Position numbers and translations under genes: made by a program. The notes below the pieces were generated by a model. The model had not been told where the DNA came from and ran no database searches. It saw only the letters and a list, made by a program, of their open reading frames with translations. A stretch of DNA of 64,000 nt, taken from a virus (taxonomy: Duplodnaviria > Caudoviricetes). The stretch is from IMG/VR virus record IMGVR_UViG_3300020161_000515, positions 1-64,000 of that record. One strand, given 5' to 3'. Below are positions 2,176 through 64,000 of the stretch, one piece after another (within the stretch, counting starts at the first letter, position 1; every line of letters begins with the position of its first letter).

Positions 2176-2574
2176 TTAAAGGTGATCTGCTATTTCAGCA
2201 TTGTAAATGCTATCGGGTTCTTGATCTAACACGACAACATAGAAATCATTTGAATAGGATAATGATTCAAATGTAAAAGATCCATCTTGATTACTTAAAG
2301 TTTCCCTTATTAAGTTTCCAGTGCGTCTATCGTATAAGCGCACTAGCTTGGAAATCGGAACAAAGTCCATCCTTGTTATACCTGCAATATCCTTTGTAAT
2401 GTCTCCTAGAGATTCAAGGGATAAGCCGGATTGATTAAATTTCAAGAATGATTTTAATGGTGGAGCTCTGTTAGTGATAAAACTTGTCTGAGAAGATTTA
2501 AAGTGCAAGGGTGGATTAGTGACCTTCATTGAGGACAATCCGCCATAAAAACCTACTGCACCAAGATCACTCAT
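2176..2574 (-). CDS. Small virion protein with C-terminal 'RxTG' beta-sandwich (family Q; carboxypeptidase-regulatory/prealbumin-like fold inferred)
   Basis: VRLYDRRTGNLIRETLSNQDGSFTFESL...YNAEIADHL matches the C-termini of 31049..31402 and 27489..29912. Confidence 0.7.
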   Translation of the reverse strand: MSDLGAVGFYGGLSSMKVTNPPLHFKSSQTSFITNRAPPLKSFLKFNQSGLSLESLGDITKDIAGITRMDFVPISKLVRLYDRRTGNLIRETLSNQDGSFTFESLSYSNDFYVVVLDQEPDSIYNAEIADHL

Positions 2575-3325
2575 TTACGTCGAAGAACAAATAGTTGCCA
2601 TTAATAACAGAGCAAAAGAGTTTTTTACCCATTGAAGAAACCATGTATCCTGGATTAAAAGGATACTCTGGTAAGCCAGCAAATAGTCCAGGCATTGTCC
2701 CTAGTGTGCATTGAGATAAATGATGGTACAGATGCACACTTGAAAACTGAGGACCTTTTGAATCTAAAAAGAATAGTTTCTTTCCCACCATAGTAGGATA
2801 AAACATTCCATGAAGATTAAAAGCAATGCTGTGATCTTCTGTTTCGTCAAGCATTAATCCAAACGAAGTTGAGCAGATGATAGCCTGGTTTTTAAATCTG
2901 TCATAGTCATTCCATTTTCCAAAGAATAAAACAACCTTACCGCTTATCAGATAAAAGAAATCGTGTGATGTAAACATTTCCCATCTACCGGATATGTCAT
3001 TTTTATCTATCACGAATCCGTTATCATTTTGGTAGATTGAAGGAAAGAAATGGTATGTATGACGATCTGGAAAATCATAGTCTGTTATTAAACTATCTGT
3101 GCAACCTCGTACACAAATTTCTGTATTACTCTCGTAAACATGTATCCAAGTGTTGTCAGGCATTTCATAAATAGTCTGCCTGTCATACTGGTGTTTAATC
3201 TGCCAACCTGCTCCATTCTTTGATCCGTACCCATCAACAAGAACCTTAGTTAAGATATTCCTGAATGATGTGTCATCCATCGTTAAGATGGGAGCACTGG
3301 TATCTGAGTAGCTGTAATGTCTCAT
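2567..3325 (-). CDS. Putative tail appendage protein (family P, shortened paralog)
   Basis: YSYSDTSAPIL...LTKVLVDGYGSKNGAGW matches paralogs at 6814, 29913 and 31402. Start moved from TTG 3331 to ATG 3325, which makes an ATGA overlap with the endolysin stop. Confidence 0.7.
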   Translation of the reverse strand: MRHYSYSDTSAPILTMDDTSFRNILTKVLVDGYGSKNGAGWQIKHQYDRQTIYEMPDNTWIHVYESNTEICVRGCTDSLITDYDFPDRHTYHFFPSIYQNDNGFVIDKNDISGRWEMFTSHDFFYLISGKVVLFFGKWNDYDRFKNQAIICSTSFGLMLDETEDHSIAFNLHGMFYPTMVGKKLFFLDSKGPQFSSVHLYHHLSQCTLGTMPGLFAGLPEYPFNPGYMVSSMGKKLFCSVINGNYLFFDVNE

Positions 3326-3885
3326 TTCCAACTCGGAGGATTAATGAATCCAAGAAAGTATAAACTCTTTTTGGACTTTTCAAATGATACCACACGTTTC
3401 TTAGAGTATATACCATCACCTTCACGGTCAGTGGAACCTATTCCACTCTTAGCACCAGTATTACCTTCAACGGTGATAATGGTTTTATCTGAGGCATTGT
3501 ATTCTTTTACGATGCCAGCATGACCTTTGCCTGGATCAGATCCAAGTCGCATGAAGAATATTGATCCCGGAACAGGAACAAACTCAGTCTTACCGATCTT
3601 CTTAAATCCTTCATATGATGCCTGAGATGATGGACTCATTGTGGTGGCAAATTCTTTTAACACATCTGCAGGAGCCTTAAGATCAGTTAAAGCTTTTCTC
3701 CAAATAGCCTCGCAAAACGAAGCGCAATAAGGCCAGCCAGCTTGCCAGCCAGCGTTCTTCATCCACTCTTTTATCTCAGCACTCAGTTCTTTGTTGTTCC
3801 ACTCAGAATTGGAAACTATTTCGTGAAGGTTTATGAAATTAGATGCCACTTCTATAATTTTATTACCTACTTCACTCTGATTCAT
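3322..3885 (-). CDS. Endolysin / peptidoglycan hydrolase, CHAP domain
   Basis: PYCASF (catalytic Cys), GHAGIV (catalytic His) and ITVEGNT motifs of CHAP amidases. Near the holin. Confidence 0.85.
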   Translation of the reverse strand: MNQSEVGNKIIEVASNFINLHEIVSNSEWNNKELSAEIKEWMKNAGWQAGWPYCASFCEAIWRKALTDLKAPADVLKEFATTMSPSSQASYEGFKKIGKTEFVPVPGSIFFMRLGSDPGKGHAGIVKEYNASDKTIITVEGNTGAKSGIGSTDREGDGIYSKKRVVSFEKSKKSLYFLGFINPPSWK

Positions 3886-6821
3886 TAACTTGCTCCAATA
3901 TAAAATAAACCTTTTTTATCAAACGGGTATGGATCTCCAAATACCGTAACAGGACAGTTACATCTCCAGACACCTAACGCAGACTGTTTGACATCTACTG
4001 ATGACGAAACCCAGGGAAAGTCTGGGCGAATGAATCCTAAGAACATTCTGTCATCTAACCATTCATTCATGCCTGGAACTTGAGTAGTTCCAGATAACAC
4101 TTCTTTACTTCCAGTCTTATGCACCAACATAACAACACCTTCTCGGTGTTCATAATTTGGTTTAGTAACAGATGTTACAGGAGCTTCATCACACCCTTGA
4201 ATAGGAACAGGAACTGTTGTTTCATCTTCTCCAGGACATCCTCCAGTCTTAGCAGGACGTCTAGAAACAGTGCATGAGCTAGACCATCCAAAAATAGAAA
4301 GAGCAGGTGTATTACCTGATTCATCTTGAACACCCATGCTTCCACAGCCAGGATCTCCATTTACTTTACAACACGGAGGTCCAGGCTCACCAGGACAACA
4401 GTTGCCACAACAGACAGGTTTAGTGAAGCATGGCTCCCAATATCTCATTTCCCTTCTTGGTGTCCATTTTCTTTTGCATACGCAATTGCCAGCATTATAT
4501 TTCATGGAAGTGTAGCTTCCAACATAAATATCACCTTTGGCTAGATAGACTGACTCACTATCAGTTTTAGGTATTACGCAAGCAATTCTGGTATAGTGTC
4601 CTCCTGTAAAACTCTCAAACTCAGAAGTAATGCTTCCACCTCTGACAGAAACAACTTTCCAATTTCCACATGATGCTATGTTACAAGGACCTGGATGTGC
4701 GTAAGGAGGCTCATTGCCACATGCTTCTCCACCACCACATCCTTGAGTTTGGTAATTAGAATTAGAATATGATGATAAGTCTGCTGAGTTACCTGATAAC
4801 GAAACTGAGTCAACTGAAAATGATCCTGACGTAGAAACATCTTTAGAGTTTGTAGAGCTACTAAACTGCCGATCTCCACAAGATGATTGATCTCCAGCAT
4901 CCTCTTTTCTTTCGTCAGGAGCAATGTTAGTTTCACAAGCATATCTGATTACTTTCAGATGGTTATACTGATCGTAGAAACAATAGATAGGGCCTTCGCC
5001 AGTAACTCCTTCTAAATCTGTTTTTGGAGAATAAGATAATTCTACATTGTAGCAATTGTATGTTGAATCCCATGTAAATACTCTGTCGTATTTATATCTG
5101 AATTTGAAAGTACCTGAGTCCATCAAATTGTCGCTAACAGATACAGCACCTTTCATAGCTTCATAAAACTCTTTAGAGTGAGGAAGTCCTCCATCAACTC
5201 TATTTTTAGTTTTAAGATCCTTTTTTAATGTTTCCATTTCTTCTGGTGTAGCGTTTTCTGAGTCTTGTATGACCCACCACCACGCACCTTCTTCAATATC
5301 ACCGTTAGCACAAATCTTTGTAATAGTATCTACAGCAGAATCTCCAGTGTCAACAATATCTGGATCATTGTATTGGTGAATAAATGTTGCTTCTGAACAG
5401 GTATACACAAATTGAATTGATGGTCTTACTGCCGCACGATCTTGTGCTTTCTTTTCTTTTTGTTCTTTGGTGTCACCAGGAGCATCTTGCATTTTAAGTT
5501 TAGCTAATGACTTCTCCCACTGATCTTTTAAGCTTGTTTCCTTTCTGATCTTTTCTTCTTCAAATACACTTTCCATTTGAAAGATAATAAAAGCAGTATA
5601 AAGGTAAGACTTATTTGGTGAATCCCAGTCAATCGTAACTACAGACAATTCTCTGCCATCCCAATCACTCTTCCAACCATATCCACCAACGTCAGCACCT
5701 TTGGTGTACGCCTTCAAATCTGTTTCTAGAACTATATTTCTGGTAGGACTGCAACTGGCTAGAATATAAGCTTCATAAGCATTTCTTTTCGCAATGCTGA
5801 GTGATTGAGTCCTCATCCACTTCTGAAGCATCCTGCCTTCTTTTGATGGTTGAAGTAAATTAATAATTACACCATTCCGCATCTGCAACAGATAATAGTT
5901 GCCTTGGGTGTCGGTGGCAAGCTTGGTCATTCCTTTATCAAGAGATGCTATTCTATTTGCTTTCTCAGACTCAGGACCCCAGTTCTCGTCACCATCAAGT
6001 CCTTTGTAAAAATACATTCTATTAGGAAATGTTCCTTTACCATAGATAGTTTTGTTTTTGCTGCCAAACTGAGCTTGAACGAATAGTCTGGTCTTCCCTG
6101 AGAATATACTTGCTGGCAGTTCTATCTTTATTAAAGTTTTCTTTTCTACAATATCGCAATCACAGACATCTTCACTGGTAGGAACTTTAAAAGCATTTGG
6201 TTTTTCTCGTTTTATCTTTCTTCCGTAGCTGTCTAATCCTAAAGACTTTCTGAAAGTATCTTGCCAAACAAGATAAGCATCACCTACAGATGTCTGAATA
6301 CCAGCATTGGGTGACACAGGCAATATAGGAACACCTACAGGTTCTCTTGACATTGGTGTGTGAGAGTATGATTGAAGCTCACCAGTGCCTTTAGGATCTG
6401 TGCAGTCAACACCTCTTTTAGGTGTTTCACATCCAATAGCTACAGATTTTGTAGTTCCTTTTTTACCACCTTTGTCTTTAACACCATTGCCACCAGTAAC
6501 TCTAGATGGAACAAGTGTAGGACATTCTCCTTTGTTCTCAGTAACCGTATATGATACTTTTAAGAATCCTATTACCGGACACCAATCTTTATTAGTGTAA
6601 AGAACTTCAGGAAGATATGATTTTGGATTAGTCCACAGAGTAGGCGATAACTGAACAGCACCGCTTTCTAGATATAAAGAACTTGTGCTATCTAAGAATC
6701 TGTTAAATGGCCCAAATGGTTGGGCATAAAACGTAGCAGATTCGGCAATAGTAGTGCCATTTGGAGCTATCTCACCTTTTCTAAATGGCTTTAGTTCTTT
6801 TGTTAAGTCAACACTAGGCAT
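3885..6821 (-). CDS. Large cysteine-rich putative virion protein (978 aa)
   Basis: Long ORF coupled to neighbours by overlaps, in a structural operon. About 19 Cys within ~230 aa near the C-terminus. No family recognised. Confidence 0.7.
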   Translation of the reverse strand: MPSVDLTKELKPFRKGEIAPNGTTIAESATFYAQPFGPFNRFLDSTSSLYLESGAVQLSPTLWTNPKSYLPEVLYTNKDWCPVIGFLKVSYTVTENKGECPTLVPSRVTGGNGVKDKGGKKGTTKSVAIGCETPKRGVDCTDPKGTGELQSYSHTPMSREPVGVPILPVSPNAGIQTSVGDAYLVWQDTFRKSLGLDSYGRKIKREKPNAFKVPTSEDVCDCDIVEKKTLIKIELPASIFSGKTRLFVQAQFGSKNKTIYGKGTFPNRMYFYKGLDGDENWGPESEKANRIASLDKGMTKLATDTQGNYYLLQMRNGVIINLLQPSKEGRMLQKWMRTQSLSIAKRNAYEAYILASCSPTRNIVLETDLKAYTKGADVGGYGWKSDWDGRELSVVTIDWDSPNKSYLYTAFIIFQMESVFEEEKIRKETSLKDQWEKSLAKLKMQDAPGDTKEQKEKKAQDRAAVRPSIQFVYTCSEATFIHQYNDPDIVDTGDSAVDTITKICANGDIEEGAWWWVIQDSENATPEEMETLKKDLKTKNRVDGGLPHSKEFYEAMKGAVSVSDNLMDSGTFKFRYKYDRVFTWDSTYNCYNVELSYSPKTDLEGVTGEGPIYCFYDQYNHLKVIRYACETNIAPDERKEDAGDQSSCGDRQFSSSTNSKDVSTSGSFSVDSVSLSGNSADLSSYSNSNYQTQGCGGGEACGNEPPYAHPGPCNIASCGNWKVVSVRGGSITSEFESFTGGHYTRIACVIPKTDSESVYLAKGDIYVGSYTSMKYNAGNCVCKRKWTPRREMRYWEPCFTKPVCCGNCCPGEPGPPCCKVNGDPGCGSMGVQDESGNTPALSIFGWSSSCTVSRRPAKTGGCPGEDETTVPVPIQGCDEAPVTSVTKPNYEHREGVVMLVHKTGSKEVLSGTTQVPGMNEWLDDRMFLGFIRPDFPWVSSSVDVKQSALGVWRCNCPVTVFGDPYPFDKKGLFYIGAS

Positions 6822-7731
6822 ACCAAGTATCCGAAGTTTCTAGAGCGTATGTTCTTCCATTGCATTTAACAATCATGAAAGATTTTCCAGCTAAAGCTCC
6901 GTTACCGTTAAAGGTGTCACCATGATTGAAGTATGATCCGTTATGACAAACATTCCATAATCCAGGAAGTCTTCCTCTGACGCAATTGATTGTAGGCTCA
7001 GTTACAAACACAGGAGATAAAAATAAATTACCATCAACTGGATTAGGAAACGGAAGTAAGTCTTTACTTGTGTCAGAGTGTTTACCACACAGTATGCTTG
7101 ATCCAACCTGGGTATAGCTACGCATTAGCCAATGGTTTGAGATGCTTTCATTGGTGGGTGAAAATGTTCCAAATGAGTTTGAAACATTATTGTAGTCTGT
7201 AGGACTTCTGCCAGTGATGATTAAATTAAATTTATCAGGATCTAAATTAATATCTCTGAATGAGATAAACTCACCAAAGCAATATCCATCAGCGGTGGCA
7301 AAGTTTGAAGAACTATTGTGGTTAATAAACAAGTAAAAGAACTTGTTGTTAGCCACTATCATCCAACCTCTTGCTATTGCATCTTTTGTGATACTTTTTA
7401 AGACTCCGACACCGAAAGGACTCTGAACAGCACTAGGGGTAGCATCGTCACCCGTATTGAGGGCGGTCATCTTGGAAAATCCACACATAACCATAATGTT
7501 TTCGTATCCAGTATAACCGTCATTGAGTCGAAGATAAAACTCATTACCCAATGGCTCAGCCTTCAATACTGAATTATGTAGTCCATCATAATATGGATTA
7601 GTCCAACCTGCTGGCTGTTTAGAACCGTATCCTGTTACTAGACAACTTGTTAGGATGTTTTCTAAAGATCCTACTTGTCCTGTTAAATATAATGCTCCAG
7701 AATCTGAAGCTAGGTATGTTTGTACGCTCAT
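6814..7731 (-). CDS. Putative tail appendage protein (family P)
   Basis: YLASDSGALYLTGQVGSLENILTSCLVTGYGSKQPAGWT...VRGRLPGLW...HGDTF...LETSDTW, shared with three paralogs in the window. Confidence 0.8.
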   Translation of the reverse strand: MSVQTYLASDSGALYLTGQVGSLENILTSCLVTGYGSKQPAGWTNPYYDGLHNSVLKAEPLGNEFYLRLNDGYTGYENIMVMCGFSKMTALNTGDDATPSAVQSPFGVGVLKSITKDAIARGWMIVANNKFFYLFINHNSSSNFATADGYCFGEFISFRDINLDPDKFNLIITGRSPTDYNNVSNSFGTFSPTNESISNHWLMRSYTQVGSSILCGKHSDTSKDLLPFPNPVDGNLFLSPVFVTEPTINCVRGRLPGLWNVCHNGSYFNHGDTFNGNGALAGKSFMIVKCNGRTYALETSDTWYA

Positions 7732-9368
7732 TCTGAATCCAGTCTGCTTATAACTTGTGAGTTAGATTTAATTGCATCGTTTTTGTCTTCCAATATCATA
7801 GCATACACAACGTCTGAATTTGTAGTGATAGCTATATGACCTGTGTCAGGAGATGAAACACCTTGATTTGAATAAGTACCTAGGACATGGTCATACGCCA
7901 CAACTTGTCTTGATACTGGTCTGGTTAAAGTATTTCTCTTAAAAGATCGTACTCTGAGATTAAGCAATTTAGGATCTGACGTTAGGTTAATATCTAACCA
8001 CTCTTTTTCAGACTTACCAAGGTTCATAAGAATGTGCTTGTGTGCAGCCTCAGATTTCTTAACAGAGAACGTTAACTTTCTAGTTAAAGAGTTGACACCG
8101 TTATTAATATTGATCCATACTTCATAGACTTTGGTAGCTCTATGTTTAGGAATAAATCCATAAAGCTTTCTGTCCTTAGGAGTTATCTTAATGAAAGAAC
8201 AATCAGTCTTCACTATCTTTAATAAGAATGGTCTGGCCTCATCATAGAATGTTTTACAAACAATATCTAAGGCGTATGAGAAAGTTTGCTCACAGTCATA
8301 CTCACCTAGATAAAGTGGTGACAAAAGTTCTAAAGTGTTTTTGATATAGTAGGCGTTAAGAGCAGAAGTTTCAACTTCATCAAAGTAAGGATACAAATAA
8401 TTCTGAGCAACGTTTTCTGTATCCATCATCATAAAACGTTCTGTGTTCATAGCACCATCGTATGAGAACACATAATCAATATTTATCTTTTTCTTTCTAG
8501 AAGTTCTTTTTAAAAAGGCTTTTACTTCTTTATGACCCCAGTTTTTATTCTTTGAAAGAATCAAAGCACAAACGCCTGCCACTAATGCAGCGGCATAGTC
8601 ACCACTAGATTTGTAACGAACCACTTTATCTAAGCACTCTACTATGATGTTTGTGCATGGCGCATTGACGGATACACATGATCCATAATTGCAGAACTCA
8701 TAATAAGATAAAGTTTCGTCAAAACCACCTACAGTGATTACGTTGGTATTTCTGACTGGTGATGCAAAATCTAAATTGAAATTACCAACTCTTTCACCGC
8801 TTTCAAAGTAATCACCTTTGGCACAGGCAACAGTTGTGATATTTCTATCAAGTAGTCTTTGAACTGATTTTGCTAAAGGATCATTAGATAGGCTTGTAAG
8901 AGTGTGATAGTTTTCGTCAGTAGGCATTTCAAGAAAATCTAAAAGCACTACTTGTTTTCTAGAAGGAATTGATACGGCAAGAACAGTGCTTATTGCACTG
9001 GAAACAGATGCTCTTAAATCTGTATAGTCCAGTGCAATACTGAAAATCTGAGCTTCTTTTGCGACACCATACTTCTTTCCACCTACAACAGAAGCAAGTT
9101 CTGTTCCTCTGCCAACTGTGTCAACTGTGCTAGAAAGATTATGAGATCTTCCAGCCAGTTCAATAGATCCTGAAATGATCCCAGTGCTTAAAATAAAGAT
9201 ATCTACCGAAGCGGCATTAGTTGAAAATGCTCCAGCCAAGTAGATAGAATTGGAATAATCACGCTTACAGATAAGGTCAAGATACCAGCCACGTCTAGCC
9301 AAAGCACCACTAAACGAAGCTTCTGCATCCTCAAGATGAATGTATCCAAAGCCATAAAAGACCGCCAT
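7728..9368 (-). CDS. Subtilisin (S8A, proteinase K/aqualysin-like) fold protein, catalytically dead, with a C-terminal virion-type domain
   Basis: Recognisable S8A scaffold (GWYLDLICKR, GGKKYGVAKEA, SPVRNTNVITVGG, FCNYGSCVSVNAP, ALVAGVCALILS). The triad motifs read ILSTGI (DTG D->S), GRGT (HGT H->R) and SSGDYAA (GTSMA S->D). Confidence 0.85.
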   Translation of the reverse strand: MAVFYGFGYIHLEDAEASFSGALARRGWYLDLICKRDYSNSIYLAGAFSTNAASVDIFILSTGIISGSIELAGRSHNLSSTVDTVGRGTELASVVGGKKYGVAKEAQIFSIALDYTDLRASVSSAISTVLAVSIPSRKQVVLLDFLEMPTDENYHTLTSLSNDPLAKSVQRLLDRNITTVACAKGDYFESGERVGNFNLDFASPVRNTNVITVGGFDETLSYYEFCNYGSCVSVNAPCTNIIVECLDKVVRYKSSGDYAAALVAGVCALILSKNKNWGHKEVKAFLKRTSRKKKINIDYVFSYDGAMNTERFMMMDTENVAQNYLYPYFDEVETSALNAYYIKNTLELLSPLYLGEYDCEQTFSYALDIVCKTFYDEARPFLLKIVKTDCSFIKITPKDRKLYGFIPKHRATKVYEVWININNGVNSLTRKLTFSVKKSEAAHKHILMNLGKSEKEWLDINLTSDPKLLNLRVRSFKRNTLTRPVSRQVVAYDHVLGTYSNQGVSSPDTGHIAITTNSDVVYAMILEDKNDAIKSNSQVISRLDSE

Positions 9369-11041
9369 TATATAAGACCGCTAACACCTATAGAGCTCCA
9401 ATCGTCCCATACGTCAACCTCAACTCCAGCAGGAACTATTCTTTTCACCCATACCGCTTTACATTTCAAAGGAGCAAGATCACCAATTACTAAAGGATTA
9501 AGTCTTGATGGTGTTGTGAACGTAACTCCAGCAGGAGCTGTATTCTCATCAGCAACAGTAACAGCTATTCCAGTAGTAAAACCATCACCCACTGAAGCTG
9601 GATCTAAACCCATCTGAAGTGTGTCAACTTTGGAAACTGGTTGAGAGTTAATGAAGATTTTTATATCCCACATAGTCTCAGTTAGGTGCGTGTTCGTCAC
9701 AAAGAAGCATCTGTATTCAGTATCTCCAAAATGAGACTCATAACGCTTAACAGAATCAAATAGCTCATTCTTCTTATTGCTGGAAGTTATGTCGGTGACC
9801 TGAAAGCGAACTCCTGTCTGAGGAAGAAGTGCTGTGACAATATCTATTGTAACCCATTTAGATTTAGTGGCATTAAACATCTTGTACTTGCCATTAACAG
9901 ATAGTTCAGTCCAATCACCCCATGTCCAACCATGAGTTTCAATATCAAGATCCTGGGTTGATTCTAGAATGAATGTAGGCGTGCTACCAACCTGAATTAC
10001 ATTAAGATTTTTTTGCCACCTATCTTCTAGTATGGCACAACGTTTATTACCTAGATCATATACTATTGAAAATGATTCTTCTGGTTCCCAGCCACCAGCA
10101 TCTATCACATTTATTCCTGTCAATCCTGTATTGAATTTGTATTCTGGTTTAGAAGTATCAGTTGCAGATGCTGCAACATTAGAAACAGAATAAGTATTCT
10201 TTTTGTAAACTTCTGATACCACTTCTGAGAATTTCTTGAATGACGAACTTCCTGGGATGCTTGTAAAGACATGGCAGCAGTTATCAAATTCAGGTAATAC
10301 AGGTAATGTTGAAAGTGAAGCCCCGTTAGAGAAAGAAAACGCTAAGTTAACCTCAACATAACCATTCAATGTTTTAGAATCAGGAAGTGCTATTCTAGAT
10401 GAGTATGAAGGTGTGTAAGTGGTTACCTGGCCTACTGTAGCACTCGTAATTGATAACACTTTTCTGGTGTATAAATCTAATGTGAAATCACCATTAGAAT
10501 TAAAAAAGTATTTAGTCCAAGTTGGGTATCCAATTCCAAAACTCCAAGGTATTGAATTAAACAACAACTCTCTTGTGCCAGCTATCTGAGTAGTTACATC
10601 TGTCATAGACTCAAAATCAGCAAACACGTCTGGAACAAGAATAGCGTAGTATTCTGTAAGTGTTTGAGATACCGTGACTCGTCTTAAGAATATAGAATAG
10701 CTAGTTGCTGGATCTAGCCCAACAACTGATAAATTCTGAAAGAAAGTTGGTAAGGTGTCAATCCATGTAAGACCAAGAAGAAACGGATCTTGGCATCTGC
10801 CATTGACAAACTCTTGTGATACACCATCTACATAATACTTGGTTTTTCTTTTTGAAGATATTGTAGAGGAAGATAATGAAAATCTCTTAGTAGGTTCTGG
10901 ATTTAAAAACGTAGCAACGGACTGACTTAAAATAGTCTTAGAAGATACTTGACCACCTAACGAAGAATTAGAATCCTCATTGTTTATTCCTCCACTTAAT
11001 TTAAGTTGAAGGTATGCGCCTAAATTTGAAGAAACTGTCAT
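9368..11041 (-). CDS. Putative tail-tip/baseplate-attached protein (family R) with ~360 aa insertion
   Basis: N-terminal LQLKLSGGINNEDSNSSLGGQVSS and C-terminal NELFDSVKRYESHFGDTEYRCFFVTNTH...GDLAPLKCKAVWVKR. Confidence 0.75.
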   Translation of the reverse strand: MTVSSNLGAYLQLKLSGGINNEDSNSSLGGQVSSKTILSQSVATFLNPEPTKRFSLSSSTISSKRKTKYYVDGVSQEFVNGRCQDPFLLGLTWIDTLPTFFQNLSVVGLDPATSYSIFLRRVTVSQTLTEYYAILVPDVFADFESMTDVTTQIAGTRELLFNSIPWSFGIGYPTWTKYFFNSNGDFTLDLYTRKVLSITSATVGQVTTYTPSYSSRIALPDSKTLNGYVEVNLAFSFSNGASLSTLPVLPEFDNCCHVFTSIPGSSSFKKFSEVVSEVYKKNTYSVSNVAASATDTSKPEYKFNTGLTGINVIDAGGWEPEESFSIVYDLGNKRCAILEDRWQKNLNVIQVGSTPTFILESTQDLDIETHGWTWGDWTELSVNGKYKMFNATKSKWVTIDIVTALLPQTGVRFQVTDITSSNKKNELFDSVKRYESHFGDTEYRCFFVTNTHLTETMWDIKIFINSQPVSKVDTLQMGLDPASVGDGFTTGIAVTVADENTAPAGVTFTTPSRLNPLVIGDLAPLKCKAVWVKRIVPAGVEVDVWDDWSSIGVSGLI

Positions 11042-19719: not shown

Positions 19720-19730
19720 AAGATAGCCTT

Positions 19731-19832: not shown

Positions 19833-19858
19833 GTTCTCAAGCTACTTAACAACAATTG

Positions 19859-54380: not shown

Positions 54381-54400
54381 GACACGATCTTGATATTGAT

Positions 54401-54435: not shown

Positions 54436-54948
54436 TTATGATCTTACTTTAAAGATCAATTTGTCCTTAAAACGATTATAAAGACCAGCAGGACTGATCT
54501 GAGTATCTACTGAATATCCACCCAAATTCAAAAATCTTGCTACCAGTGTACTACATACCTCGCCTTTGAAGTCAGGCAGTTTAAGTTTCAAACTTTCACC
54601 TAAACCAATGCTTATAAAGTCTCCGTAAGCATACGGAACTTTACCTGTGCTTTCGATCAAATGTGGGGACAATTTAACAAAGTCTATGTCCAATCTGAAT
54701 AAGTCGAAGTCACAATAAGTAGACAAAGATACTATCCGTTGACCACCAATATGCTGCTCTAACACCATCCATCTAACTTCTTCTCCAACACGAATACTGA
54801 AGACAATTGCTGCATGAAAGTATGGTGATTTAGTCCACAGTTTCGTAACCTTACTCATCAAATTACCTTTTCCTTTGACTAAGATAAAATCTCCACTTTT
54901 TAAGAAAGGTCTTATATCTGTATATTTAGAATAAAGAATAGTTTCCAT
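54436..54948 (-). CDS. Permuted papain-like amidase (YiiX/YebB-like NlpC/P60)
   Basis: LKSGDFIL...S......T.SPYFHAAIV (His first) ... PY.Y....EVCSTLV (Cys last) is the permuted NlpC/P60 order. Confidence 0.8.
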   Translation of the reverse strand: METILYSKYTDIRPFLKSGDFILVKGKGNLMSKVTKLWTKSPYFHAAIVFSIRVGEEVRWMVLEQHIGGQRIVSLSTYCDFDLFRLDIDFVKLSPHLIESTGKVPYAYGDFISIGLGESLKLKLPDFKGEVCSTLVARFLNLGGYSVDTQISPAGLYNRFKDKLIFKVRS

Positions 54949-54951: not shown

Positions 54952-55782
54952 TTACACCGTATGATTTCTATACATCCCAACAATAAAACAAGCCCTTAAA
55001 TTATCCGTAGTATTCATGTTTTCAACTTTAAAACGGATCTTATAAGGGTAAGGAATCATTTGTGGCTCTGGAGCCTCAATATGCCCGTAATGAGAATCTC
55101 TCATCATTGCGTAGCTGGTTATGAACCTGTTTACCAATGTTTCGGTAGGTAAAATAAAATACTTACCTGTTCCGGTAGCATTAGGCACCCATGATCCATT
55201 GTAATCATTATTACCACCAGTTCCGTTTGGTGCTGGGAATGGTATTCCAGCAGGACAGATAATTTCAACACTGAAATGGCAATGATCTTCTACGCCCCAA
55301 TAATGTACCTGACAATCCTTAATCCAAACATCTTCAAGGAACTGCATATCGTTTTGATATTCTTCACCAGGAGGAATCAAGAACGTCATATGATTGCCTT
55401 CACCAATCGTATGATTAACAAGATCGTCACCTTTACTTGAGTAGTACCATAATTTGTCTTTTGGTCTATCTGAAGTGGTACATATCTGATTACCGTCTTT
55501 AGTTACTTGAGATACAATTGTATTGGCAGATAATATTGTAAGGTGAGCGCAAGAAGTAGAAGCTCCTGAACCTAAATTTTGTTTAAGATCAAGAGCTGCC
55601 TGAACAGCAGAAGAGATGGGCTTGTTAATGTCAGAAGTATTGTCTACATTGCCAAGACCTATATTTTCTTTTGTTAAGATTGAAGGATCTAGATCTTCCA
55701 ACAATACCGTATAGTTCTTAATATCTGCCGTTGTTACAGTATCGTCACGAATCTGTGCGCCGGTTATTGTAGTCGTAGGCAT
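54952..55782 (-). CDS. Short fibre/decoration protein
   Basis: LTKENIGLGNVDNTSDINKPISSAVQAALDLK is a common phage trimeric fibre repeat. N-terminal T.I.G.QI motif. Confidence 0.7.
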   Translation of the reverse strand: MPTTTITGAQIRDDTVTTADIKNYTVLLEDLDPSILTKENIGLGNVDNTSDINKPISSAVQAALDLKQNLGSGASTSCAHLTILSANTIVSQVTKDGNQICTTSDRPKDKLWYYSSKGDDLVNHTIGEGNHMTFLIPPGEEYQNDMQFLEDVWIKDCQVHYWGVEDHCHFSVEIICPAGIPFPAPNGTGGNNDYNGSWVPNATGTGKYFILPTETLVNRFITSYAMMRDSHYGHIEAPEPQMIPYPYKIRFKVENMNTTDNLRACFIVGMYRNHTV

Positions 55783-56713: not shown

Positions 56714-58660
56714 TTATAGCCAAGTTAATGCAATGTTAGAAATCTTACCAGTCCATGTAGGACTTGCAGTAATTCTAACTACGATAACTTTACCAGAAGT
56801 AGAAGTATTTTTAGAACCAAGTGTCAAGCCCCAGTTTGTTGGTCTGGAATTTCCAAAGGTACTAGCATAACATCCAATATCTGTATCATTGCCGCTATGA
56901 GCCACACAAGCATCTTTCCATTCAACCGTACCACCAGCATTCTTCGTAGTATTAGGAGCTAATACTTCTAATGTTACGTTGGTCCCACTAGCACCTGTAG
57001 CAACAGGAACAAATGTAGTTCCGGTAGCAGTAACATTAAGTCTGAAGTTGCTTCTGGACGCAGCATCATAAAAATATCGAAGATAAGTTCTGTTTCCAGA
57101 TGCTGTTGAATAGTTTGGATTTGAACCGTATCCATTTGCAGCCGCCGAGAAGTCTCCATTGGTAATAGTTCCAATGTGTGAAGTAGCCTTAGGATAGGTC
57201 AACTCACCAAATGAAACAAGCAATCCAGATACATGATTTGCATTACCAGTTAACAAGTTCTGAGCTGAATCCCAAGTGTAGGATGAAGCACCCATTCCAC
57301 CTGCGCCATAGCTAGTATCTGTTAACGAAATTCCACCATGAATACGGAAGCCTTCACCGTTGAAAGTCTCGGTTGTTACGTTAGCATCATCTGCCACTGA
57401 GTCTAACAACAATCCAGTGATGGATGCTGAACCAGATGTCAGTGTAGATTGAACTGTTCGCAAGACGGAAGTGGTCAATGAAAACCCTACGTTGTAAAGT
57501 CTGCTATTGTTGACAGTAACAGTCTTTCCAGTTAAGATCACATCGTCTGTATAAGCGTTAGCAGCAGGCATAGACTGTGCAGCAGCAGTACAGTTAGTTC
57601 CGTTAAATGAGATAGCGGAAGCACTGGCAGAGTAGGTATTCTTGTAAGCGTTTGAGATCGTAATAGCGTAACTTGCAGTTGCGCCAGTATGATATCTTAC
57701 ACCTGACAAGTATTTACTTCCAGTTGCATTTAACGCAGATAAAGCACCTGTGTTAAATGCTGTTGCAGTTGCATCGTTGTCCACAATCCAGGAAGTAACG
57801 TTAGTGTCACGATACAAGCCTGTGGCATATTCGTGTCTAACTCTTACTGAGTTGTAGCCAGGACGCATAGAAGCAGCAGCAACGTTGACAGTTCCAGTTC
57901 TGTATTTAAACAAATCTAAGAATGTACCTTTGTCAAATTTAACAGCGGTAGCAGTAGTTAAATTGAATCCAGAACCATTTGCGTTTACTGATGCTCCAGA
58001 AGCGAAAGCTGTTAAATCCACTGAGTGGACAACAGTTCCATTAACTTCTAAATGCAACGTACCTTTATCACCGTCACCAAACGCATAGTTTGGATGAGGA
58101 CGATCATTGGTATAGTTAGGTACAACATTCTGAGCCAGGGTAGCTGTAACAGCCGTAGCAGCATTGATAATACCTCTAATATCACCAGCAGGTGAGTAAG
58201 AGCTGTTAATCAGTGACGATGGATGGCTTGTTAAACCTGGAATAGAATGTGACGGGTCAAAGCTAAGTTTACCTGATACTCCAGCAGTTGCAGAAGTAGC
58301 GTTAACTAAGTTTGGAGCCGGGCTTGGAGCCAATGCACCTAAGATCTCATTGAAACGGTCTACAGCCGTACCAATGGGAGTGGTTGGAACGAAGTCGGTA
58401 AAGATCCCGTCAACATATTGCCCATCTTCAGCAGCGCCTATAACGCCGCTTGCTTGAGCAGAGAATGTTTGTAAATATCTTTTATTAACAACGTCCAAAT
58501 CGTTTACAGGATCAGGAATACCAGTGATAGTACCCGGATCAACTGTGTTGCCGTCATTGATGTTCCAATCTTGCGATTTAAGGAAATCTAATTCCAGCCT
58601 TCCCAGATCAAGAGTATTACCTCTTATCTGTTCTTTTGCGTGAATAGTTGATCTAGACAT
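56714..58660 (-). CDS. Large T/A/S-rich virion structural protein
   Basis: ITGIPDPVNDLDVVNKRYL (trimeric stalk-like motif) and IGAAEDG.Y.DG.FTDF...TP.GTAVDRFNE.L..LAP motif. Beta-rich body. Confidence 0.7.
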   Translation of the reverse strand: MSRSTIHAKEQIRGNTLDLGRLELDFLKSQDWNINDGNTVDPGTITGIPDPVNDLDVVNKRYLQTFSAQASGVIGAAEDGQYVDGIFTDFVPTTPIGTAVDRFNEILGALAPSPAPNLVNATSATAGVSGKLSFDPSHSIPGLTSHPSSLINSSYSPAGDIRGIINAATAVTATLAQNVVPNYTNDRPHPNYAFGDGDKGTLHLEVNGTVVHSVDLTAFASGASVNANGSGFNLTTATAVKFDKGTFLDLFKYRTGTVNVAAASMRPGYNSVRVRHEYATGLYRDTNVTSWIVDNDATATAFNTGALSALNATGSKYLSGVRYHTGATASYAITISNAYKNTYSASASAISFNGTNCTAAAQSMPAANAYTDDVILTGKTVTVNNSRLYNVGFSLTTSVLRTVQSTLTSGSASITGLLLDSVADDANVTTETFNGEGFRIHGGISLTDTSYGAGGMGASSYTWDSAQNLLTGNANHVSGLLVSFGELTYPKATSHIGTITNGDFSAAANGYGSNPNYSTASGNRTYLRYFYDAASRSNFRLNVTATGTTFVPVATGASGTNVTLEVLAPNTTKNAGGTVEWKDACVAHSGNDTDIGCYASTFGNSRPTNWGLTLGSKNTSTSGKVIVVRITASPTWTGKISNIALTWL

Positions 58661-59088: not shown

Positions 59089-59550
59089 TTAAGATCCCCA
59101 AACGAATTTTGCGTTTCTAGCATTTACAACCTCATCCATTAGTGCAGAGATTAATGACTCAAAAACACCTGTAGCAGCAAACTCTGTGTCATCGCTTACC
59201 CCTTGAAGAGTAGGTGTAGAGAAGTTTGTCAGCCAGTAGATATTTTGTGAAACAGAGTTGCTAGAATTTGTACTAGCATAAAGCGGTGTAGTAAATTCTA
59301 GAACATCAGAACCTACCGGAGTGCTTAATGAAAAGTTAGTCAGCCAGTAGATATTTTGTGAAACAGAGTTGTTAGAATTTGTACTAGCATAAAGCGGTGT
59401 TGAAAACTCCAACGTATCTGATCCAACAGGAGAACTTACTGAGAAGTTTGTCAACCAGTAAATGTTCTGTGAAATAGCATTGTTAGAATCTGTACTAGCA
59501 TAAAGCGGTGTATTAAATTCTAAAGTGTCAGTATCACCTTGATCCGCCAT
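59089..59550 (-). CDS. Small repeat-containing partner protein (family U, ends F.WGS)
   Basis: Three 37 aa tandem repeats. C-terminal KFVWGS like 61882 and 62091. Confidence 0.7.
   Translation of the reverse strand: MADQGDTDTLEFNTPLYASTDSNNAISQNIYWLTNFSVSSPVGSDTLEFSTPLYASTNSNNSVSQNIYWLTNFSLSTPVGSDVLEFTTPLYASTNSSNSVSQNIYWLTNFSTPTLQGVSDDTEFAATGVFESLISALMDEVVNARNAKFVWGS
59218..59529. repeat. Tandem 111 bp coding repeat x3
   Basis: aagcggtgt recurs at 59281, 59392 and 59503 (period 111). Protein unit D.LEF.TPLYAST.S.N..SQNIYWLTNFS. Confidence 0.9.
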
Positions 59551-59560: not shown

Positions 59561-60715
59561 TTATGCTGGGATTATAAAATTGTTGCCTAAGTAGTAATGA
59601 GCCAAAACAGATCCTGATTCAGAATGAAACTGTTCTGCGTCAACTTTAACATTGACTGTATCCAACATAGCCCAATCCTTTCCCATGCCAGCTATTTTAA
59701 TACCAAACATTCTGCCTCGGTATGTCTTAAGGGCATTACAATTTGTCAGATCCATTTCAAGAACATGAGGTGTTATACAATACGGCAAACTTGTTGATGG
59801 GTTATTGCCAGTTGGAAGTATGTCGATAATAGTCTGAGACATCATCATACCATTAGTTCCATTACCATACTGCCAGTTATCAAACTCAGTATAAACAATA
59901 GCATTCTGGCCTTGAGGAGAAGTATAACTGGCATTATTAGTGGACGAAATGGCGCAAATCTTAGGATGAGAATACATGACCTGAAGATTAGAAACTCTTT
60001 CAGCGTTATCACCTGTATCACCTGAGGTTGTTCTAGGCAAAGATAAGTATCTGTATCCTATGTTAGCAGTACCAGCAGCGTCTTTCATCGTAAGCATGGA
60101 TACGATATTGTAGACATTGACAGGCATATTAGATAAGGATGCTGGTACTTGAGATCCACCATTTCCAGAGAATGTAGTGAAATATCCAAAATTTGGATAC
60201 GTTCCGGCAACTTCTCCATTATCAAGAGAAAACTCAACACAACCTATCGCAAAAGGTTTACTTGAGGCTGAGGGAACATATGAAGCGGAATATCCCCAGT
60301 TGCCATTGCTATTTATTCTAGATAAAAGAATAAGATATCTAGAATTGGCAAAAATGTAAAGATACCCACCGTTAACAGTATCCATAGATAATGATCTGTA
60401 AGTAGATCCTTTATAAAGATACGCCTCATTCGTTCCTACATGAGAAGTTGCATTCCAGTTCTCAAAAACTCTTATTACTAAGGATGGGTTTCCTGAAGAG
60501 TAATACTCTAGTAAAACGTATTTAAACTTTGAAGGATATTGAGAAAGTGGAGCTTTGTAAACCCTTCCACTATTTGGAGCGTTTTCGTCATGCAGTTCCC
60601 AACCATGAGCAACGATAACATCTTCAACAGACTGTTTAATAGCAGGTACTGTTTCGCCTGCTGTATATGCTACATACCACGAATTACTTCCTAGTGCTTG
60701 TGTGTTAATTGTCAT
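59561..60715 (-). CDS. Putative receptor-binding/appendage protein (family T), 384 aa
   Basis: MTINTQALGSNSWYVAYTAGET...GW..HD...VYKA...KY...RVFE.WNA..HVGTNE...YRGRMFG.K...LD.V...HYYLGNN..IPA. Confidence 0.75.
   Translation of the reverse strand: MTINTQALGSNSWYVAYTAGETVPAIKQSVEDVIVAHGWELHDENAPNSGRVYKAPLSQYPSKFKYVLLEYYSSGNPSLVIRVFENWNATSHVGTNEAYLYKGSTYRSLSMDTVNGGYLYIFANSRYLILLSRINSNGNWGYSASYVPSASSKPFAIGCVEFSLDNGEVAGTYPNFGYFTTFSGNGGSQVPASLSNMPVNVYNIVSMLTMKDAAGTANIGYRYLSLPRTTSGDTGDNAERVSNLQVMYSHPKICAISSTNNASYTSPQGQNAIVYTEFDNWQYGNGTNGMMMSQTIIDILPTGNNPSTSLPYCITPHVLEMDLTNCNALKTYRGRMFGIKIAGMGKDWAMLDTVNVKVDAEQFHSESGSVLAHYYLGNNFIIPA
60650..60715. repeat. 66 bp perfect direct repeat, copy 1 (5' end of a family T gene)
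   Basis: Identical to 61816-61881. Confidence 0.95.
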
Positions 60716-60726: not shown

Positions 60727-61881
60727 TTAAGCTGGAATTACTACATTATTACCAAGATAATAATGAGAATGAGAAGTTCCTAAAGAACTGTGAAACAAAT
60801 CAGAGTCAACTAAAACATTAACCGAATCCAGCCAGTTCCAATTTTTACCCATTCCGGCGTACTTAACACCAAACATTCTGCCTCTGTATGATGACACCTT
60901 GTTAACATCAGCCGTACTCATCTCAATTACTCTGGGAGTGATACACCAAGGCATGTTAGTAAGAGAGTTATTGCCAGTTGGAAGTATGTCTTTAACGTTC
61001 CAAGAAAAAATAGGAGCTACTCTATCTATAGTATAATATGAAGGATATGCTGCCATGTACTGATTATATCCACCAGGACCTGCTACATAACAACCACTAC
61101 CCCAAGGACAATGAAAGAACGCTGATTTTTTTATAGTTGATCGCGGGTGGTCGTATAATGCCTGAACGTTAGACTTTCTTTCTGCTAGAACAGACAGTGA
61201 TCCATCAACTGATCTTGGGATACTCAAATATCTAAAACCAATGACTGGGCAACTAGCAAAGCTTGTATCAGTGTAATTAACTCCACCTTTAGCAATTCCT
61301 GAAAATTGAGCCGGAGTGTGAAGATTTCCATTAAGAGAATTAGAACTGAATAATCCAAAGTTAGGATACGTTCCAACTGTTTCAAAATCATTTTCAATTG
61401 CGAATTCTACACAGCCCGTAGCAAACTGGTACGCCAGGTTTCCATATCCCCAATAGCCAGTTGAGATTATCTTATTTAAGAATATAGCATATCTTGCTGT
61501 AGCGAAGATATAAATATATCCTCCACCAACTAAATCAATCCCTTGTGAGCCATAATACCAACCTGCTGGATTACTAAACGCAGACCCATTAAGAGCACAC
61601 TCATTTGTTCCAACGTGTGTTGAGGCATTCCAAGTTTCAAATACTCTGGGAGCCATGTATGAAGCATTGCTCCAATCAAGCATCAAATATTTGAATGTGC
61701 CTGAGTTGGCTACAGGCGCCTTGTAAACGATTTTATCAGTCCCTGCGGCTGAGTCATGCACTGACCAGCCAGCGTTTAAAATAACCGCCTCAACGGCTGT
61801 TTTAAGGGCAGAAGTTGTTTCGCCTGCTGTATATGCTACATACCACGAATTACTTCCTAGTGCTTGTGTGTTAATTGTCAT
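60727..61881 (-). CDS. Putative receptor-binding/appendage protein (family T), 384 aa
   Basis: Same N- and C-terminal motifs as 59561..60715 with a divergent middle. Confidence 0.75.
   Translation of the reverse strand: MTINTQALGSNSWYVAYTAGETTSALKTAVEAVILNAGWSVHDSAAGTDKIVYKAPVANSGTFKYLMLDWSNASYMAPRVFETWNASTHVGTNECALNGSAFSNPAGWYYGSQGIDLVGGGYIYIFATARYAIFLNKIISTGYWGYGNLAYQFATGCVEFAIENDFETVGTYPNFGLFSSNSLNGNLHTPAQFSGIAKGGVNYTDTSFASCPVIGFRYLSIPRSVDGSLSVLAERKSNVQALYDHPRSTIKKSAFFHCPWGSGCYVAGPGGYNQYMAAYPSYYTIDRVAPIFSWNVKDILPTGNNSLTNMPWCITPRVIEMSTADVNKVSSYRGRMFGVKYAGMGKNWNWLDSVNVLVDSDLFHSSLGTSHSHYYLGNNVVIPA
61816..61881. repeat. 66 bp perfect direct repeat, copy 2
   Basis: Identical to 60650-60715, offset 1,166 bp. 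Confidence 0.95.
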
Positions 61882-62091
61882 TTAAGACCCCCATGAAAAG
61901 CTTAATGTGCGAACAGGAACTACTTTATAACTGGCCTTCAGCATGTTAGGTGAAAGAGTATCACCTAAATTAGCGAACAGTATTTTCTGTTCTTGAGAAG
62001 TCAGAAATTGTCTTCCAAATGTGTTAGAGTTTACTGTTGTATTATCTGATGCAACAGAGTTTGGGGAATAAAAAGAACCAAGAGATGCCAT
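61882..62091 (-). CDS. Small partner protein (family U, ends FSWGS)
   Basis: Start moved to ATG 62091 (MASLGSF, TAATG overlap), matching the start of 62091..62414. Confidence 0.65.
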   Translation of the reverse strand: MASLGSFYSPNSVASDNTTVNSNTFGRQFLTSQEQKILFANLGDTLSPNMLKASYKVVPVRTLSFSWGS

Positions 62092-62414
62092 TATTTCCCC
62101 CAACTAAATTTTGTTAGAATTATTTCTTGTAAATCAGGAAGTCCTGTACTCACAAAAAGCCCATCAAAAGGGCCTTTTGGAGTGAAGAACATTTTAAGTC
62201 TTGAAGCAGATACAAACAATGAAGCTAGAACAGAATCATTTGTAGCGTAGTTGTTTGGCAGAGCAGGATCAAAAACAGGTTCCATCACTCCCTTAGGAGT
62301 GAAGAACATATTTAATCTTGATGACGAGACAAACATAGCAACAGATTGCTGATTAGTGGTGTTTGTGCTTCCCACTAAATTATCTATAACTTCAAATGAT
62401 CCTAGACTAGCCAT
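62091..62414 (-). CDS. Small partner protein (family U, ends FSWGK) with an internal duplication
   Basis: MASLGSF start. Two copies of FVS.SRL.MFFTPKG. Confidence 0.65.
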   Translation of the reverse strand: MASLGSFEVIDNLVGSTNTTNQQSVAMFVSSSRLNMFFTPKGVMEPVFDPALPNNYATNDSVLASLFVSASRLKMFFTPKGPFDGLFVSTGLPDLQEIILTKFSWGK

Positions 62415-62423: not shown

Positions 62424-63761
62424 TTATGCTGGAAGCATTATTCCGTGTGGAGTCATATAGTGATTCGTTACTGTTCCGGTAGCAGCAGGGAACATATCTG
62501 AATCAACTTTCAACGTACAAGTATCCATAGGATTATAAGTGATAGCGGTATCAGTAACCTTCAGTCCATAAATGCGACCAAGCTTATCTTTTACTTTCAT
62601 TCTGGTCTCAGCCAGAAAGTAATCTGACCGTGAGGCAGTAGCATAAAGACCTGTTCCACCTGTAACATTAAATCCTCTGTTAGGACACATTTCCCTTTTG
62701 AAAACAGAAAGTGACTCTGATTCGCTAAACGAAATAACCTGAGGTGTAAATGCCCAATATGTGTTTCCACCACTTTTATTAGTCATACTTGATAAAACTC
62801 TTTGAGTAACATCAAGTAGATTTCCATAAAGTTTAGTATGGATTTTGGTCTTCCATCCAGTGAACACAAATCCGCCACTTAGGTTATATTTAATGCTAGA
62901 AGAACATGCCTGAACACTTCTGGTAGGGAATCTGTTTTCAACCCAAGGTAAAATAGCAGCAAGATATTTAGCACCAGCACCAGTATAACCTTCTATGGTT
63001 CGTGGCATAGCTAACTGACCAAGGCCAATGAATCCAGCAGGAGTGTGAGTGGCAGCATTGTCATAATGTCCAAAAGGTACTGATAGTTCTGTAGCTACTT
63101 TTAAATCAAGAACGCCTGCAGCCGAGTTACCTAAAACATAGCCCATCTTGGCAAAGCCAGCATCTTCAGCAACAGCCCCAGTCAATGGATACTGACCAAA
63201 GCACTTATTCATATTAAGAGGAGCTCTTAAGTATTTGCTGTTGATATACAAGAAGTTAGTTGAAGCGTTACTTGCTCTGGAATCATCTACTGACAACTCA
63301 AAACATCCGATAACACCGTTTCCATATGTTCCATTAGCAGTACCATAAAGGTTGTTGCTTAATTTTGCGTTAACAGCAAAGTATCTGTTAGTTGCAAATA
63401 AATAAACAACTCCACCAATAGATACACCTCCATTCAATGAAATGGCCTGATACACTGAAGTTGGTGCTTCTGGATAACTACACTCATTTGTCCCAACATG
63501 AGTAGTTGCGTTCCAAGTTTCGTACACTCTAACCTTAACACCAGATGCGTCAATGATAAAACGAATATATTTATATGACGATCCATTCTTACAGATCGCT
63601 TTGTAAATAACATCTTGGTTTGCAGTAACGGTGTCATGAAGTGTCCAACCGTGAGCAACTATCCAATCATTACAAGCGGAAAACAATGCTGAAGGTGTTT
63701 CTGTGTATGAATACGAAATCATCACAGAATTACTTCCTAATGATAATACATCAATTGTCAT
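62424..63761 (-). CDS. Putative receptor-binding/appendage protein (family T), 445 aa
   Basis: MTIDVLSLGSNS...HGW.LHD...YKA...KY...RVYETWNATTHVGTNE...GRIYGLKV...NPMDTCTLKVDS...LPA. Confidence 0.75.
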   Translation of the reverse strand: MTIDVLSLGSNSVMISYSYTETPSALFSACNDWIVAHGWTLHDTVTANQDVIYKAICKNGSSYKYIRFIIDASGVKVRVYETWNATTHVGTNECSYPEAPTSVYQAISLNGGVSIGGVVYLFATNRYFAVNAKLSNNLYGTANGTYGNGVIGCFELSVDDSRASNASTNFLYINSKYLRAPLNMNKCFGQYPLTGAVAEDAGFAKMGYVLGNSAAGVLDLKVATELSVPFGHYDNAATHTPAGFIGLGQLAMPRTIEGYTGAGAKYLAAILPWVENRFPTRSVQACSSSIKYNLSGGFVFTGWKTKIHTKLYGNLLDVTQRVLSSMTNKSGGNTYWAFTPQVISFSESESLSVFKREMCPNRGFNVTGGTGLYATASRSDYFLAETRMKVKDKLGRIYGLKVTDTAITYNPMDTCTLKVDSDMFPAATGTVTNHYMTPHGIMLPA

Positions 63762-63771
63762 GTTGTTCTCC

Positions 63772-64000
63772 TTATGCTGGTAACAGGATTGAGTAACCTG
63801 TTAAATAATGGGTTGCATCAGTGCCGTTAGTAGCAGGGAATTGTTCTGAGTCTACTTTCAACGTGCAGGTGTCCATAGGATTAAAATCTATAGAAGTATC
63901 AGCAACCTTGATGCCATAAATTCTTCCATAATACTTCTTAACCAGCATAGTTTGTTCTATGGAATATGTCTTTATCGTACATTTTGGACTGTAGGTTAAG
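63772..64000 (-). CDS. Family T paralog, C-terminal fragment (truncated by the window edge)
   Basis: Manual translation ...YYGRIYGIKVADTSIDFNPMDTCTLKVDSEQFPATNGTDATHYLTGYSILLPA*, open to the edge. Confidence 0.85.
   Translation of the reverse strand, partial: LTYSPKCTIKTYSIEQTMLVKKYYGRIYGIKVADTSIDFNPMDTCTLKVDSEQFPATNGTDATHYLTGYSILLPA

Follow-up and report, generated by a model that had tools for sequence, protein, structure and literature searches.

Phages with several receptor-binding proteins and phages with giant tape measure proteins (TMPs) are already known. The former include the branched multi-tailspike phages CBA120 (TSP1-4), G7C (gp63.1/gp66) and the Klebsiella phage phiK64-1. A lateral attachment arm has been solved in one small Pseudomonas phage, JBD30, in which heterodimers of gp47 and gp48 are stacked three to an arm and three arms grip the type IV pilus (PMC11445458). 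The structures of gp47/gp48 are PDB 8RK3/8RK5 (Valentova et al. 2024, PMC11445458). Giant TMPs are represented by the 5,002-amino-acid (aa) protein of the Thermus phages P23-45/P74-26, the tails of which measure ~0.8-1 micrometre (PMC10034513, 10.1101/2022.12.01.518664). Here we analyze the first 64 kb (64,000 nucleotides (nt), hereafter the window) of a 78,408-bp virus contig from lake water, IMG/VR record IMGVR_UViG_3300020161_000515. The window covers the larger part of the structural arm of a freshwater siphovirus not yet in culture, and the subject of the analysis is the set of duplicated protein families, here called P, T, Q, R and S, that it encodes around a TMP.

An earlier note, made from the sequence alone, had proposed that such recurring families form a branched adsorption apparatus diversified by duplication and domain insertion rather than by diversity-generating retroelements (DGRs) or invertases. 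Searches with blastp or hidden Markov models (HMMs) confirm that the families are real, with four P (one partial), four T, three Q, three to four R and two S proteins, as well as an S-type protein with three repeats. The explanation that we favor, with a probability of about 0.65, is that about 53 kb encodes an adsorption apparatus built from these few duplicated families. As in CBA120, G7C and phiK64-1, where module exchange shifts the host range, several receptor-binding proteins would combine conserved attachment parts with variable distal parts. Those phages differ in morphotype and protein families, and they are known to be branched, an architecture that for the present phage is a proposal. 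T4 gp10-like adaptors and beta-helix depolymerases have no Pfam or PHROG match on the contig, the large proteins of which have no models. What the locus adds is a siphovirus setting with a 4,039-aa TMP, two subfamilies of arm bricks at two loci (one within the junction of tail-tube and chaperone genes), the wide distribution of a P-Q gene cassette, and an R family in which the ends are conserved and the middle is variable. The P-Q cassette and the R family are uncharacterised yet present in hundreds of viral contigs.

The gp47/gp48 fold in the P and T proteins

The P and T families were delimited by blastp or HMM, and their coordinates are given in Table 1. The AlphaFold2 (AF2) model of P2 (pLDDT 89.6) was matched by Foldseek to two chains of the JBD30 structure (8rk3_G/K, E 2.8e-5 and 1e-4, probability 1.0), and VIA-align superimposes it on 8rk3_K with a Z score of 20.3 and a root-mean-square deviation (rmsd) of 2.8 A over 244 residues. 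The next matches, at Z 8-9, are confined to a barrel inserted in P2, which is like the endosialidase/Uba1 beta-barrels. The T3 model has a pLDDT of 71 with low-confidence loops, and its only significant PDB matches are again 8rk3_K/G (Foldseek probability 1.0; VIA-align to 8rk3_K Z 15.8, rmsd 3.7 A, 240 residues; runner-up Z 5.3). The matched chains, of 305 and 317 residues, correspond to gp48 (307 aa) and gp47 (318 aa). The P2 and T3 models share this fold over most of the chain.

Since both models match the gp47/gp48 chains, the assignment of P and T to one fold superfamily is supported at the level of predicted structure, as the earlier note had surmised. In sequence the two families are only faintly linked: the E value of P against T was 0.076 (hhalign), and a broad T HMM run against a small database retrieved the short P member at 6814 (E 3e-5) and gp48 (E 0.04). 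PDB sequence and profile searches with P returned nothing significant. The skeleton proposed for both families, GW...RG..(P/F)G...D(T/S)(F/V), is not matched literally under the bounded-gap readings tried, but the consensuses do show GW and RG..(P)G.W/K.

The likeness to JBD30 extends to the genes: in both cases paralogous, adjacent genes in a siphovirus tail module encode proteins of about 300-450 aa with a common fold. Adjacent pairs are P1/P2, T1/T2 and T3/T4, and two P genes are also adjacent in a 75.9-kb IMG/VR relative of this contig (G001). The two systems differ in that sequence identity is 9-12%, that JBD30 has two such genes as compared with eight here, and that P1/P2 here have an inserted beta-barrel and T long variable loops. 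Moreover, the gp47/gp48 genes lie between those for the TMP and the distal tail protein (Dit), whereas none of the P or T genes is so placed.

The T paralogs are 35-46% identical to one another (blastp) and differ mainly in long surface loops, which are poorly modelled. The 5' ends of T3 and T4 are identical over 35 nt (60681-60715 and 61847-61881) and form part of a longer similar stretch (101 nt, 86% identity); conservation recurs in another patch at equal offset (59753-59829 vs 60919-60995). These shared stretches suggest gene conversion between neighboring paralogs.

More than 500 homologues of P were found, none of them named. In culture they occur in phages of Xylella (Sano), Stenotrophomonas (DLP3/DLP5), Xanthomonas, Ralstonia, Acidovorax, Curvibacter and Pseudomonas; the hosts are beta- and gammaproteobacteria. 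Of these phages, Sano and at least some of the DLP group depend on pili. P is present in one copy in 71 of 79 IMG/VR loci and in two copies in the other 8, and five whole records have one or two copies each, as compared with four P (one partial) plus four T here. A single-protein scan of IMG/VR for close relatives of P found none. For T, a word-indexed search gave 7 matches and an exhaustive HMMER search 829 cluster representatives, mostly of ~310 aa; a T-like representative had no tblastn match in cultured phages. Two jumbo-phage contigs, L099 (281 kb) and L100 (220 kb), carry five tandem T-like genes each (L099 4237-11939, L100 3322-12459), including fusions of 997 and 1,707 aa. A relative of the fibre-like gene at genome 65160-65819 stands ahead of the array in both, and L099 also has two relatives of 54952-55782. 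The P and T building blocks are thus widespread, and the gp47/gp48 arm appears to be a widely used, expandable attachment component. The description of the apparatus as unusual should therefore be moderated, given the wide distribution of its building blocks and the T-like tandem arrays of jumbo phages.

P-Q cassettes, R proteins and divergence among relatives

Q is a conserved C-terminal beta-sandwich domain of ~110 aa. Of 79 other viral loci in IMG/VR, at least 50 have a Q domain in the gene directly 3' of P, which makes P-Q a conserved cassette of two genes whose cargo varies. The Q-bearing proteins that follow P range from 97 to 933 aa, with Q mostly at the C-terminus, and in Q2 the cargo is three lectin-type stretches (PF13385, E 4.5e-48). 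Three to five Q copies had been claimed for the window; three were recovered, and the 978-aa protein at 3885-6821 has no Q domain. A complex prediction for P2 and the Q domain scored 0.00, which counts neither for nor against an association. The conserved virion structural protein at 19859-20281 accompanies P/Q in 41 of 80 P-bearing loci and is at least 90% identical on several contigs. Genes like that at 40944 stand alongside P in 36 of the 80 loci, and genes like that at 39142 in 50. At the P2/Q2 junction, the TAG stop of P2 directly abuts the start codon of Q2, an ATG in the same frame (29910-29915); from the sequence, a read-through P-Q fusion is conceivable, or the arrangement may be tight gene packing.

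R proteins consist of an N-module of ~40 aa and a C-module of ~140 aa separated by middles of ~80, 120, 380 or 2,400 aa. On this contig the middles are ~120, 380 and ~2,400 aa, the last across an in-frame TAG, and a faint echo of R is present in 39142-40146. Elsewhere R proteins are about 250-260 aa long and belong to unnamed viral clusters (Atlas); the C-module also occurs in a small R protein directly before P in phage L021. PDB sequence and profile searches with R, the R C-domain and 39142 gave nothing significant. The genes at 18229-19719 and 11947-18228 are in frame, joined by CCA TAG GTG (18226-18234), and could be a nonsense-split gene or be read through to a ~2,590-aa protein. At the TAG itself (18229-18231), no change is listed in other lake contigs, where depth is ~3 and no listed piece spans the site. 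Stop codon use on the contig is TAA 48, TGA 8 and TAG 7; the large terminase (TerL) and holin genes end in TAG, and global recoding is therefore excluded. No tRNA genes, hence no suppressor, were found on the contig, and no RNA runs are listed among the sequencing runs that hold this sequence.

A similar pattern of conserved ends is seen in the orphan giant of 2,383 aa, which has only 2 homologues among the 1,310-4,171-aa proteins of a 5.8-billion collection. Identity to the closer homologue is 72% overall. It reaches 95-100% in the first 200 residues and 82-100% in the last 700, as compared with only 27-66% in residues 300-1300 (windowed profile).

Copies at least 90% identical to 39142, 37073, 34275, 33176, P1, Q1, P2, Q2, the S8-like protein, P3, 3885, CHAP and Q3 are encoded in the closest relative contig, as compared with none of the four R genes. 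The 50.9-kb relative contig from ENA has P3, 3885, CHAP and Q3 at this level; the collection does not contain P4 as annotated. In the closest relatives P1, P2, P3 and T1-T4 are all at least 90% identical, and the T block recurs with at least 90% identity on a 116-kb ENA contig. The 50.9-kb and 116-kb contigs were compared via 90%-identity protein clusters only. G001 is more distant (its capsid protein is 56% identical), with gene order shared all the way from the terminase to the P genes. It is without the T block, the HNH gene at 40188-40922 and the duplicate at 33755, and the proteins that take the places of 37073 and 35344 are unrelated to them. The gene set is therefore not invariant across relatives, and its divergence is mosaic: the distribution fits conserved scaffolds (P, T, Q and 19859) combined with fast-changing specificity parts (R and the giant).

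Both routes of diversification put forward earlier find support in these data, namely duplication (the P, T, Q, S and 33176/33755 paralogs) and the insertion or replacement of domains between conserved ends (the R middles and the middle of the giant). The 78-kb contig, for which open reading frames (ORFs) of about 120 aa or longer were scanned, yielded neither a reverse transcriptase nor an invertase; its repeats are paralog 5' ends and one 3 x 111-nt tandem, with no DGR-like template/variable pair among them. The proposed independence from DGRs and invertases accordingly holds for this contig, which is about half of the genome.

Interpretation and alternatives

By analogy with JBD30, the eight bricks (P and T), mostly encoded in adjacent gene pairs, would heterodimerise and stack into lateral arms at the tail end of the virion. 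The Q proteins encoded after P would be accessory partners with variable N-terminal cargo, and we infer that they dock on P. In R and the giant the conserved ends would stay fixed, and the swapped or inserted middles would probably contact receptors, of which there may be several. Diversity would stem from duplicated genes, gene conversion and the replacement of segments, without a DGR or invertase. R and the middle of the giant vary between near-identical lake phages and are therefore the first candidates for host-range determinants. These candidates concern an abundant, uncultured lineage of freshwater phages with, by prediction, unusually long tails.

Several observations weigh against this interpretation. 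The P genes are 9-39 kb away from the TMP gene on its downstream side, and the T genes are upstream of the chaperone gene. A P homologue is found in a podovirus-like gene context in Pseudomonas phage 8P, and the P family is therefore not bound to one mounting site. That P, T, Q, R and the giant are virion proteins is a prediction from their genes, and R, the two giants, 3885-6821, 37073 and 35344 received no functional assignment from Pfam or PHROGs (for some, also from PDB sequence or Atlas searches). As the contig covers about half of the genome, a DGR or invertase could be located elsewhere. Lastly, the N-terminal ~1,175 aa of the TMP have no TMP homology, and the ruler may be shorter than the protein.

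The P and T paralogs could alternatively be the bricks of one composite structure and not individual receptor binders. The various pairs would then follow one another along one or a few long arms or a collar, with a copy number that reflects architecture (size, symmetry mismatch) and not multiple specificities. This is a possibility that we take seriously but hold to be somewhat unlikely. The three stacked heterodimers of each JBD30 arm (PMC11445458) are a precedent, and the conservation of P1-P3 and T1-T4 in relatives in which R and the giant vary fits a scaffold role. However, the T paralogs diverge in their long loops, as expected of binding surfaces that are exposed, lectin domains are present in one Q protein, and G001 manages without the T block. 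That absence, together with the position of the block between tube and chaperone genes and its collagen-like and fibre-type proteins, is also what would be seen if the T block were an acquired accessory module that decorates the neck, head or tail tube and not the tip. The unit of a 65160-like gene and a T array in 220-280-kb jumbo-phage contigs suggests that such a module is transferable. We nevertheless consider decoration unlikely: among relatives of T, structures have been solved only for baseplate arm proteins, and where a gene lies says little about where its product sits in the virion. An elaboration of the lateral-arm interpretation borrows from this idea and is, in our estimate, quite unlikely. 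The eight bricks would form three or four chemically distinct heterodimeric arms, the T set shared with jumbo phages would be mounted on the neck or along the tail, and R and the giant would be loop-display adhesins with middles exchanged among strains. Were this true, the phage would be a siphovirus with several independent receptor-search devices.

The remaining alternatives concern the largest proteins and the assembly itself. No binding or fibre domain is recognisable in the giant of 2,383 aa, the R protein of 2,093 aa or the protein at 3885-6821, and scattered among them are a CHAP lysin and an S8-like protein, as might be expected of ejected or internal proteins or of envelope enzymes. 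That they are not adhesins is highly improbable in our view, given that the ORFs belong to the late distal-tail operon, that the C-module of the R giant is common to small R proteins (including the one directly before P in L021), and that conserved ends with a variable middle are typical of host-range proteins. It is barely credible that the locus is an assembly artefact, either a chimeric contig or a set of collapsed or expanded paralog repeats. Although this is a metagenome assembly without terminal repeats, strand use and composition are uniform, matching contigs come from two other lake studies, and proteins at least 90% identical are encoded on the independent 116-kb and 50.9-kb contigs.

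Tail length, genome context and other features

The tape measure, earlier put at about 4,000 aa, is identified by PF10145 and by PHROGs of TMPs (n = 13). The PHROG matches span residues 1176-2678, with no likeness to known TMPs outside this range. Its gene precedes the baseplate genes and follows a chaperone gene with an overlapping shifted frame, an arrangement like that of lambda G/GT. The usual ruler relation is ~0.15 nm of tail per TMP residue. If the whole TMP serves as ruler, the tail would be roughly 0.6 micrometre long, and by the same rule the tail of G001, with a TMP orthologue of 3,367 aa, would be about 0.5 micrometre. Part of the 5,002-aa TMP of P23-45 is an RNA polymerase (10.1101/2022.12.01.518664), and the full TMP length therefore need not be the ruler here. 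No enzyme domain, including RNA polymerase, was found in the present TMP by Pfam and PHROG scans, and blastp self-comparison of the TMP and the giants listed no internal repeats. What is shared with P23-45/P74-26 is a giant TMP, from which an exceptionally long, non-contractile tail would follow; those phages are of an unrelated lineage and habitat, and their TMP is longer and has the polymerase domain undetected here.

The contig has a GC content of 37% and a coding density of 97.8%, and its minus strand carries every credible gene. In order of transcription it encodes the small and large terminase, portal, protease/scaffold, major capsid protein, connectors and an Ig-bearing major tail protein, followed by the 13.8-kb extra block, the chaperone, the TMP, 39 kb of distal-tail genes and the holin. 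A sheath gene was not found on the contig, and the module is for this reason considered siphovirus-type. No terminal repeats were found on the contig. CheckV estimates the completeness of G001, which is syntenic with the contig, at 51%; from this value and from the 116-kb and 50.9-kb relatives, which are independent contigs with proteins at least 90% identical, we conclude that the contig is probably about half of a 120-165-kb genome. The sequence recurs in lake and freshwater metagenomes of three studies. Contigs of two other lake studies match in pieces of 0.3-0.9 kb, with 99-100% identity in one study and ~96% in the other. Megablast against cultured phages gave no match. In the contig comparison, the letters from 17103 to 8773 were disregarded, as they match over only ~20 nt.

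Table 1 Features of the contig (positions prefixed "genome" reach beyond the window)
Feature	Position	Strand	Evidence
P1, gp47/gp48-fold protein	31402-32469	minus	P HMM E 3e-125; phrog_9998, phrog_9600
P2, gp47/gp48-fold, inserted beta-barrel at residues ~36-118	29913-31040	minus	AF2 + Foldseek
P3	6814-7731	minus	P HMM 3e-68
P4, partial	N-terminal part of 2567-3331	minus	P HMM 1e-8
T1	genome 63772-65148	minus	T paralog
T2	62424-63761	minus	T paralog
T3	60727-61881	minus	T paralog
T4	59561-60715	minus	T paralog
Q1, free-standing Q domain, 117 aa	31049-31402	minus	Q HMM; blastp to other Q copies
Q2, three Laminin_G_3 domains, then C-terminal Q (residues 691-807)	27489-29912	minus	PF13385, Q HMM
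Q3, C-terminal Q domain	2176-2574	minus	Q HMM
R, N-module only	18229-19719	minus	R family
R, C-module only (2,093 aa)	11947-18228	minus	R family
R, both modules	11051-11947 and 9368-11041	minus	phrog_13135 for R family
Orphan giant, 2,383 aa	20318-27469	minus	no Pfam or PHROG match
Conserved virion structural protein, 140 aa	19859-20281	minus	phrog_3758 E 1.8e-30
TMP, 4,039 aa	41315-53434	minus	PF10145 at residues 1488-1666, E 1.4e-38
Tail assembly chaperone	53775-54254	minus	phrog_1442
Shifted overlapping frame of chaperone gene	53506-53883	minus	fills 340-nt gap ahead of TMP
Distal-tail gene region downstream of TMP (39.1 kb)	2176-41318	minus
Baseplate-core region	32826-41318	minus	synteny with G001; phrog_4408, phrog_6128, phrog_6079
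Baseplate-core genes	40944-41318, 39142-40146, 37073-39139, 36720-37076, 35344-36720, 34275-35342, 32826-33176	minus
Duplicated pair	33755-34282 and 33176-33742	minus	paralogs
HNH homing-type endonuclease between two conserved baseplate genes	40188-40922	minus	phrog_953 E 8e-67
Subtilase-like (S8) protein within fibre cluster	7728-9368	minus	PF00082 E 3.7e-10; phrog_3677
978-aa protein without Q domain	3885-6821	minus	no usable match in Atlas
CHAP lysin, inside fibre cluster	3322-3885	minus	PF05257
Holin	513-1010	minus
Ig-bearing major tail protein (tail tube)	genome 68340-69332	minus
Extra block (T block), 13.8 kb	54436 to genome 68244	minus	between tail-tube and chaperone genes
Fibre-like proteins	56714-58660, 54952-55782, genome 65899-67140, genome 65160-65819	minus	fibre PHROG matches
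Collagen-like protein	genome 67403-67888	minus	collagen match
S proteins	62091-62414, 61882-62103	minus	blastp/HMM
S-type protein with 3 x 111-nt repeats (three of 37 aa)	59089-59550	minus
170-aa protein at end of T block	54436-54948	minus	enoyl-CoA hydratase-like PHROG E 8e-13; no Pfam match

Within the T block, the small S proteins are located after each T pair. All three S proteins terminate in F-x-W-G-(S/K) and have motifs in common, either N-terminal or within the repeats; they may stand to T as partners in the way proposed for Q and P. A further family of three copies (U), listed in the earlier note, has no certain mapping and may correspond to the fibre-type N-termini of 65899/65160/54952 or to the three LamG repeats.

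The S8-like protein has been described as a putative pseudo-enzyme in which every catalytic residue is replaced. The CHAP gene precedes the last P-Q pair and is ~2.3 kb away from the holin gene; its product could be an endolysin or a tail-associated lysin. An intergenic element of ~110 nt with a GC-rich hairpin is present in three copies (19709-19835, 32470-32583 and 54328-54402, the last inverted). The copies are found at module borders, between 19859 and the R genes, between the baseplate core and P1, and between the T block and the chaperone gene, and they may be terminator/promoter units or recombination borders.

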